Shown: in pieces, positions 1,023 to 64,000 of the stretch | Layout: each line of letters opens with the position of its first letter | How positions within the stretch are numbered: position 1 is the stretch's first letter | Assembly (NCBI GenBank): GCA_964356795.1 | Contig: CAYHIK010000003.1 | Span: 19,004 to 83,003, forward strand | DNA: 64,000 nucleotides | Source of the DNA: an uncultured Candidatus Saccharibacteria bacterium | GTDB taxonomy: Bacteria > Patescibacteriota > Minisyncoccia > 2-02-FULL-40-12 > GWA2-44-9 | Direction: 5' to 3' | Position numbers and translations under genes: made by a program | Notes under the pieces: generated by a model | Databases searched by the model: none | What the model was told of the DNA's origin: nothing | Seen by the model: only the letters and a program-made list of their open reading frames with translations

Positions 1023-2744
1023 GTGAAACATCGTATTGGAGCTCCACGAATCTACGTTGCGCTGTGTGTGATCTATGGAATCTTCGTCATCATTGGGTGG
1101 CGAATTTATGATATTAGCTGGCGCAGGCACTCGCTTTACTCACAAACTGCCCTCGCACAGGCCGAGGGTGTACGCAACGTGTTCATGCGTGGCAGTATTT
1201 ATATTACCGACCAAGAGCGCGCGCAGCATCTCGTCGCTACCAATCGAAAATTTTCCATCGTCACGGTGTTTCCATCAAAGGTTGATCGCGCAGCGGCAAG
1301 TCAAACAGCGGATACACTCCAGCGTATAGCCGGTATTGATCGCGAGGTCTCGCTCAAGGCTTTGAATTCTGATCGCTCCGCGGTTCGCGTGATACTACGA
1401 CGTCCGACTGATGAGCAGGTGCGTGCTGTTCAGGAATTGAATATTCCCGGCGTGTCTATAGGGTATGAAACTGACAGAGCGTATCCCGCGGGCATACTCG
1501 CGGCCGATGTGGTCGGTTTTCTAGGGTACGGAGCCAATGGTCGGCAGGGTCAATATGGCATCGAGTCGATGTATGAATCGGAGCTCACAGGAACGCGTGA
1601 TACGCCCGAGATGGTGCGATGGGATATCAAGGGGCAGCTCAAGAAATTATTTAGAATATCTCCGTCAACTCCGGAGTATGACGCTACCACTGCGCCTCAA
1701 GATATCGAGCTGACGATTGATAAAAATATTCAAGCGTATGGAGAAGAGGTGCTCACGTCGGTTGTTGAGCGATACAAGGCCGCATCGGGCGTGTTGATTG
1801 TGCAGGATCCTACGACAGGGCGCATTCTTGCGATGGCTGACACCCCGACGTTTAATCCGGGAATGTACAGCGAAGCTTCACAGGCATCATTCTTGAATGG
1901 AGGAATCTTACCGTTTGAGCCCGGTTCTTCGTTTAAACCATTCACGATGGCGATGGGATTGGATTTGCGCTTAATATCGCCTGATACGATGTTCAATGAC
2001 ATTGGTGATGTTGTCATTGATGGCTATACCATCAAGAATTACAATGAGGGTCATTTTGGGCGAGTCTCCATGACGCGCGTGCTCGAAAAAAGTATCAACA
2101 CAGGCGTTATGTACGTGCAAAATCTCGTGGGTAATCAATTATTCCTTGACTACACGGTAAACCTAGGATTCGGTCAGCGTTCGGGCGTGGAGCTTCCGGG
2201 CGAGTCGAGCGGTGATATCAGTAATCTCTATAGTGGGCGAAGGATAAACTTTCAAACTGCATCATTCGGGCAGGCGATTACCGTCACACCACTTCAGCTT
2301 ATTACCGCGTACTCCGCTATTGCGAATGGTGGAAAGCTCATGAAGCCCTCGATCGTTGCCGCGACCATTGACTCGCATGGTGCTCGAACGGAGACAGTAT
2401 CCGAGATGATCGGCACTCCCTTTTCTGCGAAGACCGCGCAGATGCTCCGAGGGATGCTCACATCAGTGGTCGATAATGGCTTCGACAAAGCACGTATACC
2501 GCGGTACGATGTTGCTGGAAAGACAGGCACCGCACAAATAGCTAGTCCTGAGGGCGGATACCTGGAGGGGCAGTACAATCATAGTTTTGTGGGATTCGCT
2601 CCGGCAAGCAATCCAAAGTTTGTTATTTTGATTAAAATGGAAAAACCGCAAGGCATTACGTTCGCAGCGGATAGCTTGAGCCCTGCGTTCAAAGATATGG
2701 CAACGTTTCTTTTGCATTATTTTAACGTACCCCCCACCCGATGA
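1023..2744 (+). CDS. ftsI: Penicillin-binding protein 2 / FtsI-type transpeptidase
   Basis: N-terminal TM helix. The transpeptidase motifs SSFKP (SxxK), SIN (SxN) and AGKTGTAQ (KTG) are present. The gene is in the dcw position. Confidence 0.85.
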   Translation: MKHRIGAPRIYVALCVIYGIFVIIGWRIYDISWRRHSLYSQTALAQAEGVRNVFMRGSIYITDQERAQHLVATNRKFSIVTVFPSKVDRAAASQTADTLQRIAGIDREVSLKALNSDRSAVRVILRRPTDEQVRAVQELNIPGVSIGYETDRAYPAGILAADVVGFLGYGANGRQGQYGIESMYESELTGTRDTPEMVRWDIKGQLKKLFRISPSTPEYDATTAPQDIELTIDKNIQAYGEEVLTSVVERYKAASGVLIVQDPTTGRILAMADTPTFNPGMYSEASQASFLNGGILPFEPGSSFKPFTMAMGLDLRLISPDTMFNDIGDVVIDGYTIKNYNEGHFGRVSMTRVLEKSINTGVMYVQNLVGNQLFLDYTVNLGFGQRSGVELPGESSGDISNLYSGRRINFQTASFGQAITVTPLQLITAYSAIANGGKLMKPSIVAATIDSHGARTETVSEMIGTPFSAKTAQMLRGMLTSVVDNGFDKARIPRYDVAGKTGTAQIASPEGGYLEGQYNHSFVGFAPASNPKFVILIKMEKPQGITFAADSLSPAFKDMATFLLHYFNVPPTR

Positions 2745-47408: not shown

Positions 47409-49379
47409 TCAATAACTCTCGGGGACAGCCGCGTCGTATTGGATGTCTACGAGGATTTTGGATAATTCCGAGGGTACGGAGCGGACCCAAAATGGAGAAA
47501 GCGAGATGGTGGCTGATCGGAACTCCTCCTTATTTCTAAAGAATTCGCGGACACGTTCCCCCTCCTTACCGGCGATACTCTTCTTAACGAGTTCGATATC
47601 AATGGGCTTAAATGCGGTCCCTTTGATGCGCACCGTAAAGGCAAGCGTATCAAGCTCTCGTTTCAGAGTGACATCGGAATAGGAAAGTATTACAAAGTCT
47701 GGTTGAACAAAAAGCCGAGCGCTGTTTAAGAAGGATTTTGCTATGAGCGTATCGAGATCGGAGCGCCGGAATGCCACGGTTGAAAGTGTACCAGTGGCGG
47801 TTACCGTAACTGCACCAGCAGCATCATCTGGCTGTGCGGTTGCTTGGATATCTTTAAATTCTGGCGTGTCTTGGTTCACAATGGTGAGTTCTGAGCCTTG
47901 CGCACCGAGCGCAGTCTTGATTTGCTCTTTCACTCCTTCGATTGCTGCTTGCTTTGCGGCGTCAAAATCGGCTTGTGTCACGACGCTCGATGGACCACTT
48001 GCTCCTCCGGTCATTGGTTGCTCCGAGCGACCGTAGAATTTCGCCGCCTTTTCGGTGTCCCCGCTTTCGCGGAATGCCACAATCGTAAATGAGCCGGCAG
48101 GAACGTTGTAGTCTGTGCCAGGTTTATCTGCAATAACATCAACGCTCATTGAGCCAGGTGTCGGAGTTCCCGCTTTTACTGTGCTCCCTGGAACGGTCAC
48201 TGTCTGGAGCGTTCGAAATACCTTGCCATCGGAAGATTCAAATCGTGTTGTTGCGACGAGCGACTGGGGACTCGAGGAGTATTCGTTGTAGATGGTTATT
48301 TTGCCACGAGCTTTTGACGCGACGTCGCGGGTGCCCGTTGCCTGAACAGTGTGCGAGTTAGTCTTGGTGACCTCGAGGAGCTGTCCGGGAAGCTTGAGGA
48401 ATGCCTCATCAATTGATGCAAATGTATCCGACGTTTGCACGGAAAGCGTGGTATCAATGGGAGAACCTACGGGGATAATTGAAACATGTGCGCTGCCAGT
48501 TACCATATATACAACAGCAGCGAGTACTACGCAGGAGCCGAGGAGGATTGATGCGGCGACCCCTTTTGACATATGCGACGATCCAACGGAGGCAGTCCGT
48601 GTGAATAATCGAGACCATAGCGAGGGTGTGTGCGGAGCCATGCGTCCGTGGGTGTTGGGACCGAATCCAACTTTATCTCGCCACATGGCATCGATGTAAT
48701 CGAGTTCTCGGGCGTTCTCAATCGCAACCTTCTCTGAGCGTTCTGCTCGGCCAGATGGATTCATAATCCTATGAGGAAGTCCGCCACGCACGCCGTCTAC
48801 AGCGGCTGCGAGTTGTGCCTGAATGGCGTTTTCCTCGGCTGATAGCGAGCGTACGAGCTCATCATTGGTCGCGTGGAGATCGGCGGCTAGTGGACGATCA
48901 GGCGCGCCATCCGCATCCTCATCTACGTGGTTTCCTTCGGCATCTTCGATGTGCATTGTGGGCAAGAGGTCTTCATCTTCTTCTTTTGATGACCCCATCG
49001 TTTCATCGGATGTAAGCGGGGTCGCGTCACCAAGGTCGGCGGTATCATTGAAGTCCTGCATGTCGTCGTCGGCTGGGAGTGGTTGGGTTGTGAGCGTCGC
49101 CTTCACTGGCTTTTCGGCCTTGCTCTTACCGGCTGACATAACATTAAACCCGAATTTTCGGGCTAGTTGGGCTGTGAGCGGATTTGCGGTGAGGATGGAG
49201 ACCGTTTTTGCACCTTGCGTGGATTCTGCTGCAAAGGCTGCAAAATGATCTTCGTGTCGAAAGAGCTTCCCATTACGAGGAAGCACCAAGATAACCTCTC
49301 CAGCAGCCGCCTTTCGAAATAGCTCAAGGATATCGTTGAACGAGTCATCCTTAAGTACATTGATAATTTTGACGCTCAT
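47409..49379 (-). CDS. Hypothetical large membrane protein (656 aa) with three regions: a cytoplasmic N-domain, an acidic linker/TM segment, and an extracytoplasmic beta-rich domain
   Basis: Start refined to the ATG at 49379. One TM helix around VAASILLGSCVVLAAVVYMV. No family recognised. Confidence 0.55.
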   Translation of the reverse strand: MSVKIINVLKDDSFNDILELFRKAAAGEVILVLPRNGKLFRHEDHFAAFAAESTQGAKTVSILTANPLTAQLARKFGFNVMSAGKSKAEKPVKATLTTQPLPADDDMQDFNDTADLGDATPLTSDETMGSSKEEDEDLLPTMHIEDAEGNHVDEDADGAPDRPLAADLHATNDELVRSLSAEENAIQAQLAAAVDGVRGGLPHRIMNPSGRAERSEKVAIENARELDYIDAMWRDKVGFGPNTHGRMAPHTPSLWSRLFTRTASVGSSHMSKGVAASILLGSCVVLAAVVYMVTGSAHVSIIPVGSPIDTTLSVQTSDTFASIDEAFLKLPGQLLEVTKTNSHTVQATGTRDVASKARGKITIYNEYSSSPQSLVATTRFESSDGKVFRTLQTVTVPGSTVKAGTPTPGSMSVDVIADKPGTDYNVPAGSFTIVAFRESGDTEKAAKFYGRSEQPMTGGASGPSSVVTQADFDAAKQAAIEGVKEQIKTALGAQGSELTIVNQDTPEFKDIQATAQPDDAAGAVTVTATGTLSTVAFRRSDLDTLIAKSFLNSARLFVQPDFVILSYSDVTLKRELDTLAFTVRIKGTAFKPIDIELVKKSIAGKEGERVREFFRNKEEFRSATISLSPFWVRSVPSELSKILVDIQYDAAVPESY

Positions 49380-49459
49380 CGAGTGCGAATATTCAGACGA
49401 TTCAGTATACCGCACTCTGTGCCCACGTAAAACCCCTGAATGTGGAAGAATAGTGAAAA

Positions 49460-49488
49460 TTGACAAAACCTATATAAACTGCTATAAT
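49460..49488 (+). promoter_or_regulatory. Consensus sigma70 promoter TTGACA-17-TATAAT
   Basis: -35 TTGACA at 49460-49465, a 17-nt spacer, -10 TATAAT at 49483-49488, followed by AGGAGG at 49495-49500 and the ATG at 49509. Confidence 0.7.
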
Positions 49489-49508
49489 GTATATAGGAGG
49501 TCATTCAC

Positions 49509-49703
49509 ATGGACATCTACGGATATCGGCTTCCTGAAGAGGAGCCGTATCGGACGGCGGCAATCGTAGCAGTCGTCGCGATGCCGATCGTCGCACTCGT
49601 GGCAGTCGGGTTCGGTGCCCGTGCCGCCGGGCGCAAGTTGGCCGAGTTGGCCGACGAGCGTGCCATCGAAAAGCTGGCCCGCGCCGCGCGAGGGGTACGG
49701 TGA
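49509..49703 (+). CDS. Small hydrophobic protein P1 (64 aa, one TM helix plus an amphipathic basic tail)
   Basis: Consensus SD AGGAGG 8 nt upstream of the ATG. The DNA is very GC-rich (high GC3). Confidence 0.4.
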   Translation: MDIYGYRLPEEEPYRTAAIVAVVAMPIVALVAVGFGARAAGRKLAELADERAIEKLARAARGVR

Positions 49704-49855
49704 GCCCGGCCTCGGTCGACTTCGCGGTTTTCGCGGCCCTCATCATGGCCCTGATCGGCATCAGCTTCACCGTCATGGGGATGCTGGCCGGTCTGGTCGG
49801 ATACTGGATCGACGGCTACAAGGGAATCAGAATCGTCGTTCGGAGTCGGCGATAG
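49700..49855 (+). CDS. Possible small membrane peptide P2 (51 aa; GTG start overlapping the P1 stop as GTGA)
   Basis: Hydrophobic. However, GC-rich DNA produces open frames by chance. Confidence 0.2.
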   Translation: MSPASVDFAVFAALIMALIGISFTVMGMLAGLVGYWIDGYKGIRIVVRSRR

Positions 49856-49989
49856 TGTCGCCCTGGGAAGTCATCCCTGCTCTCGCGGTGATGGCGATGA
49901 TTCTACTCGCGCGGCTCATCCCCGCGCTCCGTGCCCACTTCGGGTATGGTGCCAAGCGACAGCGCATCTACCCCCGACCCCGCGTCTAA
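49855..49989 (+). CDS. Possible small membrane peptide P3 (44 aa; GTG start overlapping the P2 stop)
   Basis: Hydrophobic. Its stop lies inside the terminator hairpin. Same caveat as P2. Confidence 0.2.
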   Translation: MSPWEVIPALAVMAMILLARLIPALRAHFGYGAKRQRIYPRPRV

Positions 49990-49998
49990 CGCGGGGTC
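49969..49998 (+). terminator. Rho-independent terminator
   Basis: Hairpin ACCCCGCG-TCTAA-CGCGGGGT followed by CGTTTTTATTT. Confidence 0.7.
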
Positions 49999-52988
49999 GT
50001 TTTTATTTCTATAACGTTGCGAAGCGTGCAATACGCGCAGTCTGTATCGGAGCACCGTCGATTCCAGAATGATAGTTCTCGTATTTCATGCGCAACACTC
50101 ACGATGGATTCCTCGAGTTCTTGCACTGCGGACGATGAGAGCTCAAACACTTCTCGGTGCCATTTTCCCCTATCATCGGGTTCGACAAAATCGATGACAC
50201 CCGTGTGCGTTTTGTATGTTCCGTCCTGCCAGCGGTCGAGTAAAAGTTTATAGAATGTAAGTTGCCGGAAGTAATTCCCATCGCCGTCTTTCACTGAGCC
50301 CACGATGTGTGCCCGCGACTTCGGCTTCCCTGTTTTATAGTCGATAACAATCACGGAGCCATCAGAGTTCATATCCACCTTGTCGATTTTGCCGTTCAGG
50401 ATAATCCCATCCCCTATTTCAACAGCAGGTATTTTGAGCTGGTTGAGAATTCGCGGATGCCATGTCGTGTGGTATTTCTCGTAGTATCCCTCGAGCGCCT
50501 TTCGCCCGCGCGCGCGCCCAGCTTCCAACTCGGACGATTGCATGGGTTGGTGCTGGAGGAATCGTTCGAACAACTGCACGAGATGCTCCTTTGATTTCTT
50601 CTCGCCGGCAACGTATGCGTCAAAATACTCTTGAAGCGCACGGTCGACAGCATTTCCGTACATGAGGGCAAAGCTTGAGGCTTCGGGGATGCGAATCAAA
50701 TTTGTGTAGAAGTATCGCCACGGACAGGTGAGGTAATTATTGAGCGCCGTTACCGATAACCCGTACCGATTAAATAATTCATTGAGAAATGTCTTATCGG
50801 TAGCAAGGGGGACGCGCTGGGGTGCGGCATCGAATCGTTTTGATTGCTCCTGAAGCCATAATGCTCGAAAAGCGTTGGTATCGATATGCGATACAAGCGT
50901 TGGATTGATGTCTGAAATATACCGAGCAGGGAGCTCTTCTCCGCCGTCGAGCGTGTGCGTGCTGTGCGCTATGACGACTTCGTGTCGTGCACGCGTCAGG
51001 GCGACGTAAAATAGGTTCCGTTCGTCGTCATCATCCTCGATTGGCGCAGTTGCGCGTGATTGGACGAAGAGCGAAGGAGGTAGCTTGATGAGTTCTCGTC
51101 GCTTACGAGAGCCCCACCGACTATCAACTGTGTCTATGATGTATACATATGAAAACTCAAGCCCCTTACTCTTGTGCACAGTCATAACACGCACGCGATG
51201 TGGTGCGAGCGCGCCCTGAGGAGCGTGTACGGGGATACGATGCTCGCGGAGAAAGTCGAGATGCTCCACAAATTGTGCGAGCGTAAGCGCGCGATTGCGT
51301 TGCACGTGCGAGCGGAGCATATCGTAGAATGCGTGGAGTCGCGCAAGAGAATCAGGCGCATCGACGCTACGCAAAAGCGACGCAAGCACACCGGACTCTC
51401 GAATAATCGTCTCAAGCGCCTCTGTGGACTCGGGCTGCGCCATGAGTCGTGACCAGTGCGTCATGCGACTCGCAAGCTGTTGAAGTGCGTCGGGGTATTC
51501 AATGCCCGCTTCATGCATGGCGGGAGAAGATCGCATGATATCGTACGGATTTCTACCACCTCGACAGCATTCGATGAGTTTGTATACGTCGAGCGGATCA
51601 ATAGCGAGTACGGGAGTATGGAGCGCCTCATAGAGCGGTCGCGACTCTCCGAACGCTCGCACCGCATCAAGGATGAGTGTGAGCTGGTGAAGATACGGGT
51701 CCGAGAGCGCATCTTGTTGCGAGGAAATAGAATAGGGAACGGCTTGGCGTTGGAGAAACTCCGCGATACGCGCGACTCCTGCGTTGTCTCGCACGAGGAC
51801 TGCAATATCATCGGGACGAGCTCCTTGCTCGATGCGTTCCGAGATATGACGCGCAATCATCCAGCACTCTTCGTCGGGGTTATCGCACGTCATGAGCAGA
51901 ACGGGCGTAGTCGACTCCCGTTCTGCCTGCGCCCGAAGGCCACTTCCGGCGCTCGGACGTATCCCCTGTGCCGCATCGAGGATGTGTTGGTGTGAGCGGT
52001 AGTTATCCTCAAGCTCGATGAGCTGTGCATCGGGGTACAGTTTTTGAAAATAGAGGAAGTTTTCAAGCGATGCTCCTTGGAACCGATAAATAGCCTGCTT
52101 CGCATCGCCAACTACGAATACATTCGGTCGCTCCCAAAATGATGCAAGAAGCTCAACAACTTTATTTTGTGCGTTGTTGGTATCTTGATGCTCGTCGACC
52201 AGAAGATAGTGGTGCTTTTCTTGGAGCATGAGGCGAAGCGATTCATCGGATGCGAGCACGCGTGCCGCCTCCATTACCATGTCGTTGTAATCGTACAATC
52301 GCTCAGCGCGTAGAAGCGCCTGATATCGTGTGTAGACGTCTGATAATTCGCGCACTTTTCCAACCTGCTTTAATTGGTCCTGATATGCTCCCTTCATAAC
52401 TCCCTTATATGCGCCCTTCTCATGATAGAGATCGTCGGAGCTCATCACGATAGATTCTTCGCGAGTTGCCACGTCTATAAGGCGCTCGGGCGTAATACCC
52501 TCTCGCTTGAGCGTATTGATGGCGCCGACAATTGCTTTGAGGTAGAGGTCGGGCGCATTCACGGGTCGCAGAAGTGGCAGCGAGGGGTGCTCCTCGAGAA
52601 TCCGCTGAAGATAGAGGGCTTGATCTGCTTCGGTGATTGATGCCGCCCCCGCAATCGCTCCAAACGACTCGGGATACTCTTGAATAATAGAATTACAAAA
52701 TGAGTGAAATGTGGTAACGGTCACGCGATACGCATCGGTACCGATGAGCGCGGCGAGACGCCCCTTCATCTCGGCAGCGCCAGACTCGGTAAACGTCAGC
52801 GCGAGGATTGCTTCGGCGGGGGTATCAGTGCGAGCAAGAATATTTGCGATGCGGAGCGTGAGAATATTGGTCTTTCCCGTGCCAGGTCCGGCAATTACCA
52901 TCACCGGCCCCTCGATTGCATCAACCGCCTCGCGTTGACGAGTATTGAGGCTGCTATAGGCGCTCTCAAATGCCTCAGTTGTTTTCAT
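49986..52988 (-). CDS. UvrD/PcrA-family SF1 DNA helicase fused to a C-terminal PD-(D/E)XK nuclease domain (AddA-like single chain)
   Basis: N-terminal AGPGTGKTN Walker A and the UvrD motifs. The C-terminal GKIDKVDMNSDGSVIVIDYKTGK plus QLTFYKLLL is a RecB-type nuclease core. 1000 aa. Confidence 0.8.
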   Translation of the reverse strand: MKTTEAFESAYSSLNTRQREAVDAIEGPVMVIAGPGTGKTNILTLRIANILARTDTPAEAILALTFTESGAAEMKGRLAALIGTDAYRVTVTTFHSFCNSIIQEYPESFGAIAGAASITEADQALYLQRILEEHPSLPLLRPVNAPDLYLKAIVGAINTLKREGITPERLIDVATREESIVMSSDDLYHEKGAYKGVMKGAYQDQLKQVGKVRELSDVYTRYQALLRAERLYDYNDMVMEAARVLASDESLRLMLQEKHHYLLVDEHQDTNNAQNKVVELLASFWERPNVFVVGDAKQAIYRFQGASLENFLYFQKLYPDAQLIELEDNYRSHQHILDAAQGIRPSAGSGLRAQAERESTTPVLLMTCDNPDEECWMIARHISERIEQGARPDDIAVLVRDNAGVARIAEFLQRQAVPYSISSQQDALSDPYLHQLTLILDAVRAFGESRPLYEALHTPVLAIDPLDVYKLIECCRGGRNPYDIMRSSPAMHEAGIEYPDALQQLASRMTHWSRLMAQPESTEALETIIRESGVLASLLRSVDAPDSLARLHAFYDMLRSHVQRNRALTLAQFVEHLDFLREHRIPVHAPQGALAPHRVRVMTVHKSKGLEFSYVYIIDTVDSRWGSRKRRELIKLPPSLFVQSRATAPIEDDDDERNLFYVALTRARHEVVIAHSTHTLDGGEELPARYISDINPTLVSHIDTNAFRALWLQEQSKRFDAAPQRVPLATDKTFLNELFNRYGLSVTALNNYLTCPWRYFYTNLIRIPEASSFALMYGNAVDRALQEYFDAYVAGEKKSKEHLVQLFERFLQHQPMQSSELEAGRARGRKALEGYYEKYHTTWHPRILNQLKIPAVEIGDGIILNGKIDKVDMNSDGSVIVIDYKTGKPKSRAHIVGSVKDGDGNYFRQLTFYKLLLDRWQDGTYKTHTGVIDFVEPDDRGKWHREVFELSSSAVQELEESIVSVAHEIRELSFWNRRCSDTDCAYCTLRNVIEIKTTPR

Positions 52989-57266: not shown

Positions 57267-57575
57267 CTAGTCGCGGTACACCATCCGCGCACAAATCCAG
57301 TCCGAGATCGGAAACGCGATACCCGCACCGGCGATCCAAGCGGCGACCACCATCAGCGGGTCGTGGGACAAGACGGGCTCCCCCTGCGTGTACCATCCGA
57401 TGCCCAGGATGACCGCGACACCAAGCCCCGTCATCAGGAACATATCGATGTAGTATTGACGAGACGTCATGCGCGTCCCCCGCCGCTCACTCGTGCAGAT
57501 TGCGACGAACGGATAGAGTACGTCGAGCACGACAAACGCCATCATGACGGCGATACTCACTGAGTCGCTCGGCAT
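57267..57575 (-). CDS. Hypothetical small membrane protein (102 aa)
   Basis: Three hydrophobic helices. Confidence 0.45.
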   Translation of the reverse strand: MPSDSVSIAVMMAFVVLDVLYPFVAICTSERRGTRMTSRQYYIDMFLMTGLGVAVILGIGWYTQGEPVLSHDPLMVVAAWIAGAGIAFPISDWICARMVYRD

Positions 57576-63204: not shown

Positions 63205-63304
63205 TATCGTATACTACCGCACCGCATGCATTCCTCGTATATTGACAATAATTATATACCGTGGCATACTGAATACGTTCGTTTTACCCGAGAGGAGAAC
63301 GCAG

Positions 63305-63739
63305 ATGCTGAACTGGATCCAGAAGTTGATCAATGCCGTACCCGCTGACTGGACGCCGAGCCTCGCGCCGATGGAGCCGGGTGAGAAGTTGCTCGGCCCC
63401 ATCCCCAACGAGATCATGCCCGAGTTGCGGGCACTCGGATACCTCGCGCACGAGATGCGGCGCCTGGCTGCAGAGCACAATACGAGCCACTCCGAAGGGA
63501 CAAGTCACGGTGAAGAGGCGTGCGCTCGCTTCGCAAGAACCATTGCGGCGTGGGAGTCCCAGGGAGCCATTCTGGGACAGGCCATCGCATTGGCGCTCCG
63601 CGAACACTTCGATACGGGCGCAGATGGCAAGGTCGACATCCGAGCAGAGGGCGTCATCCTCCATGCGCCCGATCCGCTCGAGCAGTTGCGCGCCTTGGGC
63701 TTCCAGGTCATCGAGTTCGACCCAAAGGCGGACATGTAG
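63305..63739 (+). CDS. Hypothetical protein (144 aa) in a GC-rich segment
   Basis: ATG at 63305 preceded by GAGGAG. Terminator downstream. Confidence 0.45.
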   Translation: MLNWIQKLINAVPADWTPSLAPMEPGEKLLGPIPNEIMPELRALGYLAHEMRRLAAEHNTSHSEGTSHGEEACARFARTIAAWESQGAILGQAIALALREHFDTGADGKVDIRAEGVILHAPDPLEQLRALGFQVIEFDPKADM

Positions 63740-63753
63740 CAGGTAGGTAGGCC

Positions 63754-63786
63754 AGACCGGGTGCGCGTGCATCCGGTCTTTTCATA
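63754..63786 (+). terminator. Rho-independent terminator
   Basis: Hairpin AGACCGG-N12-CCGGTCT followed by TTTCAT. Confidence 0.5.
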
Positions 63787-64000
63787 TTAGAGAAGCTTCC
63801 TCACCCACAAATAGCGAATCATACCCAACACGATAAGAATCGTAGTTCCAATAACAAAAAAGAATGCAGACGGGTGATCTCCAAGTGGGAGGCGTACATT
63901 CATTCCATAGAGTCCCGACATCACCATAGGAACCGTCAGTACCACCGTCATGAGTGTGAGGAGCTTGATGACGCGGTTTAATTCGTTGGTAGCAATAACC
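63787..64000 (-). CDS. corA: Magnesium/cobalt transporter CorA, C-terminal part; the 5' end lies outside the window
   Basis: The reverse translation ends ...LYGMNVRLPLGDHPSAFFFVIGTTILIVLGMIRYLWVRKLL, with the GMN motif and the two C-terminal TM helices. Confidence 0.8.
   Translation of the reverse strand, partial: VIATNELNRVIKLLTLMTVVLTVPMVMSGLYGMNVRLPLGDHPSAFFFVIGTTILIVLGMIRYLWVRKLL

Follow-up and report, generated by a model that had tools for sequence, protein, structure and literature searches.

What is encoded in a short, very GC-rich segment that lies between two minus-strand genes and carries expression signals close to textbook quality? The question is raised by a 64,000-nucleotide stretch of bacterial DNA (contig CAYHIK010000003.1, positions 19,004 to 83,003; hereafter the window), in which this segment, here called the cassette, contains three consecutive small open reading frames (ORFs), P1, P2 and P3. 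A first-pass annotation made from the letters alone had already placed it between two minus-strand genes, which are identified here as the gene of a UvrD/PD-(D/E)XK helicase-nuclease, whose 3′ end borders the cassette, and that of a 656-residue membrane protein, which faces it with its 5′ end. The interpretation that we favour, with a probability of roughly 60%, is that the cassette is a genuine tricistronic operon, ancient, dispensable and lineage-specific, for abundant small membrane proteins, which would act as membrane subunits and not as poisons. The elements of the cassette are the following.

49460–49465, plus strand: −35 hexamer TTGACA of the cassette promoter (TTGACT, TTGACA or TTGACC at the equivalent place in relatives)
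49480–49488, plus strand: extended −10 element TGcTATAAT, with a spacer of 17 nucleotides (nt) to the −35 hexamer
49495–49500, plus strand: Shine-Dalgarno (SD) sequence AGGAGG, 6 nt after the −10 and 8 nt before the P1 ATG at 49509
49509–49703, plus strand: P1, 64 residues, ATG start; acidic N-terminus, predicted transmembrane (TM) helix at about residues 17–35, basic amphipathic C-terminal helix
49690–49695, plus strand: SD-like GAGGGG, 4 nt 5′ of the P2 GTG, as read from the sequence
49700–49855, plus strand: P2, 51 residues, initiated at a GTG that overlaps the stop of P1 (GTGA); long hydrophobic segment, basic C-terminal tail
49842–49845, plus strand: SD-like GGAG, 9 nt 5′ of the P3 GTG, likewise a reading of the sequence
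49855–49989, plus strand: P3, 44 residues, initiated at a GTG that overlaps the stop of P2 (TAGTG); predicted TM helix, strongly basic C-terminal tail
49975–50009, plus strand: intrinsic terminator, with an 11-bp stem at 49975–49999 (9 G-C pairs), a 3-nt CTA loop and then the T-run TTTTTATTTC

The cassette promoter was the sole 12/12 match to the sigma70 consensus in a pattern scan of 44–56 kb, and in our own scan of both strands of the whole window it alone scored at least 11/12; by our own arithmetic, a perfect match is expected by chance about 0.02 times per window. In addition, TG is found one base 5′ of the TATAAT, forming the extended −10. The arrangement TTGACA-17-TATAAT-6-AGGAGG-8-ATG at 49460–49511, which the first-pass annotation had considered the strongest expression signal of the window, is thus read directly and keeps that rank. 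The 5′ untranslated region (UTR) would be only ~14 nt long, given a transcription start placed from the sequence. From these signals, the operon is probably very highly expressed. The intrinsic terminator had been put at 49969–49998, close enough to the stem found here. Its hairpin is coding on both strands, the 5′ arm specifying the end of P3 (RPRV*) and the 3′ arm, on the minus strand, the end of the helicase (TTPR*); the P3 TAA (49987–49989, plus strand) and the helicase TAG (49986–49988, minus strand) overlap within the 3-nt loop.

P1, P2 and P3 each contain one strongly hydrophobic core of 19 residues (mean Kyte-Doolittle hydropathy 2.2–2.7), flanked on the N-terminal side by a short acidic segment with a net charge of −1 to −2 and on the C-terminal side by a basic one with a net charge of +4 to +6. 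By the positive-inside rule this predicts an N-out/C-in topology for all three. The AlphaFold 2 model of P1 is a single continuous helix over residues 13–62, with low confidence (predicted local distance difference test score, pLDDT, 65). The GTG starts overlapping the preceding stops are present at both junctions, as had been noted, except that P3 starts at 49855 and not at 49856; both P2 and P3 begin with VSP. The gene caller had predicted P1 alone and missed P2 and P3.

The locus was compared in ten distinct relatives (contigs L008 and L010 to L018), eight of them retrieved through homologues of the 656-residue protein. A cassette with one to three small ORFs is found at the same site in eight of the ten (L008, L010, L011, L012, L013, L014, L017 and L018), and three additional contigs, obtained in look-ups for substitution analysis (L019, L020 and L021), carry it as well. 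Its content varies as follows.

Window: three small ORFs, of 64, 51 and 44 residues
L017: three small ORFs, of 66, 52 and 57 residues, all of them called genes, with starts that overlap as in the window
L008: two small ORFs, of 63 and 38 residues
L012: two small ORFs, of 68 and 38 residues
L014: two small ORFs, of 51 and 49 residues, with a DUF2779 gene in the place of the helicase gene
L010, L011, L013 and L018: one small ORF each
L015 and L016: no small ORF

The layout of the unit is preserved together with its signals. In L008, a Candidatus Yanofskybacteria metagenome-assembled genome (MAG), the gap between the helicase and 656-residue-protein genes contains TTGACT-17-TATAAT, AGGAGG, an ATG and a 63-residue ORF whose product combines a TM helix with a charged tail, then a second ORF with its own AGGAGG and ATG, 38 residues long and hydrophobic. 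The hairpin CCCCGCGC...GCGCGGGG plus Ts, which resembles the terminator of the window, closes the cassette in both L008 and L012. L010, a soil metagenome contig, has the same promoter, a single 55-residue ORF and a terminator. Nearly all carriers have a promoter of the form TTGAC(T/A)...TGCTATAAT together with a strong SD, the −10 sequence TGCTATAAT itself being kept in L008, L010, L012, L014, L017 and L019, and similarly short leaders are found in L008, L012, L010 and L019. In L015 and L016 the intergenic gaps measure 40 and 76 bp, and these empty sites stop directly after a conserved GTGGAC motif. One further Paceibacterota contig (L007), with a helicase 42% identical to that of the window, lacks the synteny and is uninformative on the cassette. 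A metagenome scan with the alignment of the 656-residue protein added one new locus.

Two relatives show rearrangements of their own. In L014 (483–2003) the convergent helicase-nuclease gene has been swapped for the DUF2779 gene, leaving the small-ORF cassette and the gene of the 656-residue protein unmoved, so that the cassette tracks the latter side of the locus and not the helicase side. In L011, about 120 bp with a second hairpin and T-run lie between the first terminator and the helicase stop (~2061–2190, minus strand), 3′ of the 57-residue ORF; this extra segment may be what is left of downstream ORFs since lost.

In a neighbour-joining tree of the 656-residue protein, the two three-ORF genomes, the window and the basal relative L017 (48% identical), fall on distant branches, and the empty sites are nested among carriers. 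Because of these two features, the simplest history would be an ancestral three-gene operon that was trimmed and lost repeatedly. The cassette belongs to a small clade of Paceibacteria from groundwater and soil, members of the candidate phyla radiation (CPR), and the window is Yanofskybacteria-like: its helicase is 63% identical to that of the Candidatus Yanofskybacteria MAG and 42% to that of another Paceibacterota MAG. The exact P1 protein with the adjoining helicase is found only in groundwater metagenomes of well H41 at Hainich (0.1-µm fraction) and on a 92-kb NCBI MAG contig. A Hainich groundwater origin of a CPR bacterium is consistent with the literature (PMC8672522). The literature search turned up no description of such a small-ORF cassette.

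The first ORFs of the syntenic cassettes share a layout of TM helix, R[KR]L and an acidic, Ala-rich tail ending in ...AARLExxLR (an EEKAARLExALR-like motif). A word-index protein search with P1 returned nothing beyond P1 itself. A profile of the P1 family matched 13 proteins among 5.8 billion, all unnamed, and an exhaustive hidden Markov model (HMM) scan of 1.84 billion representatives gave eight P1-family clusters plus one doubtful 270-residue match, unnamed too. With the sequence of the window excluded from the model, P1 came out on top of all 1080 ORFs in the six frames of the window (E 5.8e-4), and in pairwise comparisons it reached z scores of 6.7 with L013 and 4.4 with L018. The ratio of nonsynonymous to synonymous polymorphism (pN/pS) in the family is 0.18 for L013 against L020 (synonymous divergence 0.59) and 0.32 for L008 against L019 (0.37). 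By these comparisons, P1 is a genuine protein on which purifying selection acts, and it belongs to a tiny, unannotated and lineage-specific family.

The way in which the operon may work can be outlined. The extended −10 sigma70 promoter and the consensus SD on a very short leader would drive P1, and P2 and P3 would be translated from their own weak SDs, their overlapping starts (GTGA and TAGTG) giving the classic layout of translational coupling. Transcription would be strong and probably constitutive. The operon would be ancestral to the clade and, having been trimmed or lost repeatedly, accessory. P1, P2 and P3 are predicted to insert N-out/C-in with their basic tails in the cytoplasm, and they may act together, either by forming a small helical bundle or by serving a larger membrane protein as accessory or anchoring subunits. 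In P1 the conserved helix predicted to lie in the cytoplasm, R[KR]L...EEKAARLExALR, is the candidate interaction surface.

The competing explanation that survives best, although we regard it as unlikely, is that the peptides damage membranes, as toxins resembling a type I module, as a set of the holin or pinholin type, or as multi-peptide leaderless bacteriocin-like products that an episymbiotic CPR cell directs against competitors or its host. They are small, hydrophobic, cationic-tailed and consecutively encoded, their codon usage is atypical, they belong to no housekeeping family, and their distribution is that of an accessory element whose presence differs among close relatives. The searches did not point in this direction, however. 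No match above noise was found in Pfam, either with the members of the P1 family (n=9, E up to 10) or with P1–P3 (E up to 1), nor in NCBIfam, PHROGs and PADLOC scans of P1–P3 and their relatives; the sub-threshold matches reflected TM composition (the DUF883_C glycine zipper at E 0.023, CcmI and 2TM-TIR). Type I toxin models, among them Hok/Gef, Ldr, TisB, Fst, Ibs and ShoB, remained unmatched in the Pfam and PADLOC scans of the cassette proteins, no chain was matched in profile and sequence searches of the PDB, and phage genomes gave no match.

The surroundings expected of a toxin or lysis system were not found either. In a consensus scan of 44–56 kb, which a weak promoter could escape, the minus strand had no promoter-like site from 49432 to 52940, and the one site near the cassette, at 49431–49404, points away from it, towards the gene of the 656-residue protein; there is no antitoxin ORF in or beside the cassette. 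An unregulated toxin expressed from a consensus promoter and SD would be lethal, and sequestration of the SD is not clear: in the minimum free energy structure AGGAGG is paired, weakly, with a run of C close to the 3′ end, and in the centroid structure it is unpaired. The cassette has no prophage, endolysin, immunity gene or ABC exporter in its vicinity, where the helicase-nuclease, the 656-residue protein, infA and ribosomal-protein genes are encoded. The full-length TM helices differ from the amphipathic helices of bacteriocins, and deeply diverged genomes have retained the cassette at a single site, the motif of the cytoplasmic tail being under purifying selection. Of the small membrane peptide module originally proposed, the strongly signalled unit for small hydrophobic peptides stands, and the family, phage and Rfam searches lend no support to a known toxin family, a holin or a structured RNA.

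A distinctly less probable alternative is that P1 is the sole gene and that P2 and P3 are chance open frames in a GC-rich 3′ UTR, which had been raised at the outset. Every frame of the GC-rich stretch is indeed open, including a 124-residue ORF on the plus strand and a 91-residue one on the minus strand, the gene caller gave P1 alone, several relatives have a single ORF, and the pN/pS of a downstream ORF is 0.69. P2 and P3 were compared with 15 candidate peptides by Smith-Waterman alignment with 500 shuffles. The best partner of P2 was the second ORF of L017 (z 5.5) and that of P3 the third ORF of L017 (z 4.1), none of the 500 shuffles being as good in either case; weaker similarity (z ~2) was found between P3 and the 38-residue second ORFs of L008 and L012. 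The called genes of 66, 52 and 57 residues in L017 are thus, in the same order, the best matches of P1, P2 and P3, respectively, and a second ORF is called or clear in L008, L012 and L014. The GC contents at the first, second and third codon positions are 0.75/0.51/0.72 in P1, 0.56/0.44/0.85 in P2 and 0.71/0.49/0.76 in P3, so that the coding-type periodicity changes frame exactly at the P1/P2 and P2/P3 junctions, where the third-position peak (GC3) moves to 0.85 and 0.76 in the proposed frames. Because of the positional matches in L017, the frame-specific GC3, and the SD-like motif and start/stop overlap at each junction, P2 and P3 are probably genes too, with all three ORFs translated.

The composition of the cassette raises the question of its origin. 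GC content over 49509–49989 is 64.4%, compared with 51.7% for the window (z ~5), the highest-GC 300-bp stretch of the window lies here, and the GC-rich segment has sharp edges at the promoter and the terminator. The pooled GC3 of P1–P3 is 0.78 versus 0.536±0.051 (maximum 0.67) in 160-codon pieces of host genes (z 4.8), which bears out the earlier estimate, made by eye, of about 65% GC with GC-rich third positions. Of the 14 isoleucine codons 13 are ATC, a codon that makes up 40% of those for isoleucine in the host (p 7e-5), and 82% of the alanine codons end in G or C, against 51%. The synonymous-site composition of the cassette is therefore really alien to the host. Two sources of such a bias were tried and rejected: expression-linked codon choice, as the ribosomal-protein genes have a GC3 of only 0.47–0.58, and the codon usage of TM segments, for which GC3 in the host is 0.55.

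It is nonetheless improbable that the cassette arrived recently from a distant, GC-rich source, for example an actinobacterial host or a mobile element, and landed by chance between housekeeping genes. The GC of 64% versus 52%, the GC3 of 0.78 versus 0.54, the ATC bias, the sharp edges and the presence of two more GC3-rich ORFan genes within the window all fit such an import. Yet a homologous cassette with the same type of promoter and a terminator occupies the same site in 8/10 distinct relatives, and the family is confined to the clade among the 1.84 billion representative proteins. Searches of phages and plasmids (blastn and tblastn; 50,697 phage records) gave no match to the cassette, apart from a chance one of 54 bp in a Streptomyces MFS transporter gene. 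By the ORF list and the tRNA scan, no recombinase or integrase ORF and no tRNA adjoins the cassette, and no repeats were noticed at its edges, where a dedicated boundary repeat search was not made. Moreover, GC3 of the cassette exceeds that of the host by 0.04 to 0.3 in every relative, whatever its GC content, for all first ORFs and for all downstream ORFs except the third of L017, a pattern that speaks for a locus property or for intra-clade exchange. Cassette exchange among GC-richer relatives, or a locus-specific bias, would accordingly be favoured over a distant donor as the source of the excess of G/C-ending codons. Of the foreign look first ascribed to the segment, the alien codon usage holds; a sporadic insertion does not, because the same unit is found at the same site in eight of ten relatives whose flanking 656-residue protein is 45–58% identical.

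A longer shot, of a different kind, is that the cassette encodes a clade-specific, abundant hetero-oligomeric peptide complex that works at the cell surface or the membrane interface in an episymbiotic lifestyle, for example by forming a small pore or by remodelling membranes during contact with the host. The strongest promoter of the region, the swapping among relatives indicated by a GC3-rich allele pool and by presence/absence polymorphism, and the N-out/C-in peptides with cationic tails could all be taken in its favour. If true, it would represent a new class of small-protein effector instead of a housekeeping accessory subunit.

A highly expressed structured non-coding or dual-function RNA is very improbable. 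The cassette is GC-rich relative to the genome, with a strong promoter and a terminator, and the folding z score of the whole transcript is −3.1; but it shrinks to −1.4 once the terminator hairpin is removed, for which reason this explanation was dropped. In relatives the score ranges from −1.1 to −3.5 with the terminator included. At the gathering thresholds of Rfam 15 only two tRNAs were found in the window, and at relaxed thresholds the best scores in the cassette were at most 20 bits, all on the terminator, against thresholds of at least 42. Conservation is seen at the protein level, with a synonymous divergence of 0.37–0.59, and a consensus SD precedes an ATG.

That one ordinary gene has been split by frameshift or assembly errors is next to negligible: three abutting ORFs in three different frames might suggest it, but the cassette sequence is identical in five independent assemblies and one base off in two further contigs (the Hainich contigs being clonal, with one difference in all), a TM helix and a basic tail are encoded by every one of the three ORFs, and relatives carry separate small ORFs, in L017 with the same three-frame layout, and never the one conserved long ORF that the first-pass annotation had considered they might hold.

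Several observations weigh against a tricistronic operon of membrane subunits. No homologue with a known function was found in Pfam, NCBIfam, PHROGs, PADLOC or PDB, and the function is wholly inferred. The homology of P2 and P3 consists of short, compositionally biased TM alignments to one relative, and the downstream-ORF ratio of 0.69 (L008 versus L012) is based on few sites. The cassette has been lost in two relatives, so it is not needed by its neighbours, and a functional link to the 656-residue protein is weakened by that loss. Finally, a GC3 of 0.78 in a 0.54 genome is accounted for neither by expression level nor by TM codons, and some horizontal history is thus likely.

The gene of the 656-residue protein and its divergent promoter complete the locus.

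47409–49379, minus strand: gene of the 656-residue protein, heading the infA-rpsM-rpsK-rpsD-rpoA cluster
49404–49431, minus strand: probable divergent promoter of that gene, TTTACG-16-TATACT (9/12 match), belonging to the neighbour and not to the cassette

The gene of the 656-residue protein lies directly upstream of infA, a place taken in many bacteria by secY-adk-map. Besides an acidic linker and a single TM helix, the protein has a conserved N-terminal domain of ~85 residues and a large C-terminal one, the latter with weak Baseplate_J/GlxA-like matches, and no relative in the PDB was found by sequence. All of its more than 240 homologues that have a source name come from Patescibacteria, Paceibacterota or Yanofskybacteria, and by this criterion it is a widespread, Paceibacteria-specific protein. 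The TATACTG of its promoter and an upstream GTCCACA are kept in relatives, including those without a cassette. The GTCCACA motif, as written in the orientation of the gene of the 656-residue protein (window 49441–49447, TGTGGAA on the plus strand; equivalent sites in L008 and L010–L016), lies ~45 nt upstream of the TATACT and is present in nine of the ten relatives, both cassette-less ones among them; it may be a regulator site for the operon of the 656-residue protein, infA and the ribosomal proteins.

Two other GC3-rich genes are found elsewhere in the window. A second stand-alone GC-rich unit, at 63244–63790 (plus strand), consists of TTGACA-17-CATACT, the SD GAGAGGAG, an ATG at 63305, a stop at 63739 and a hairpin/T-run terminator, and its product is a soluble protein of 144 residues (GC3 0.79, Pfam unmatched). 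At 57270–57575 (minus strand) there is a multi-TM ORFan of 102 residues (GC3 0.81, Pfam unmatched). Together with the cassette, these two genes suggest a class of GC3-rich small genes in this genome.

CPR/Patescibacteria genomes are small and rich in unannotated genes, and small proteins are their least explored part; here two of three ORFs were missed by the gene caller despite the best promoter in 64 kb. If they are as abundant as their signals imply, P1–P3 could be major membrane components of ultra-small cells, and they are tractable, since synthetic peptides and heterologous expression are feasible. The locus also holds a lesson, in that a sharp GC and GC3 island with perfect signals resembled a foreign insert, whereas synteny marks it as an old, clade-specific resident. 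The family of small proteins is new and unannotated, its general kind is familiar, and current understanding is not overturned.

Several known systems resemble the cassette in part. The multi-peptide leaderless bacteriocins, such as enterocin L50, aureocin A70 and garvicin KS, are encoded by two to four consecutive genes for cationic peptides of 30–50 residues. The cassette likewise has consecutive genes for small cationic peptides without leader sequences, but with classical hydrophobic TM segments, no exporter or immunity gene nearby and no family match. With the major coat proteins of Pf3 and M13 the likeness is one of architecture only: an acidic N-terminus outside, one TM helix, a basic C-terminus inside, a length of 44–64 residues and a probable Sec-independent insertion. 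Inovirus genes are absent from the vicinity, and no PHROG or phage similarity was found. P1 is similar in size to TatA/TatE and shares with them an N-terminal TM helix that leads, through a hinge containing Gly (GFGARAAGRKL in P1), directly into a charged, amphipathic helix, although the TatA/TatE HMM (PF02416) was unmatched at E up to 10 in nine P1-family members, and the predicted topology and motif differ.

Like the type I toxins Hok/Gef, Ldr, TisB, Fst and Ibs, the peptides are small, hydrophobic and single-TM, accessory in distribution and made from a stand-alone transcription unit. Unlike in those systems, there are three peptides, no antisense RNA promoter was found, no translational block is evident, no family HMM matches, and deeply diverged genomes have kept the cassette at one syntenic position. 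The small single-pass membrane proteins AcrZ, KdpF, CydX, MgtS and MgrB, in turn, are accessory or regulatory subunits that are not toxic when expressed. The family scans gave no sequence relationship between them and the cassette peptides, which differ also in that three distinct ones share a translationally coupled operon that has a very strong promoter to itself and is not part of a partner-complex operon. They are alike in their 40–65 residues, one TM helix and short charged tail, and, as is the case for the cassette peptides, they are lineage-restricted and often missed by gene callers.

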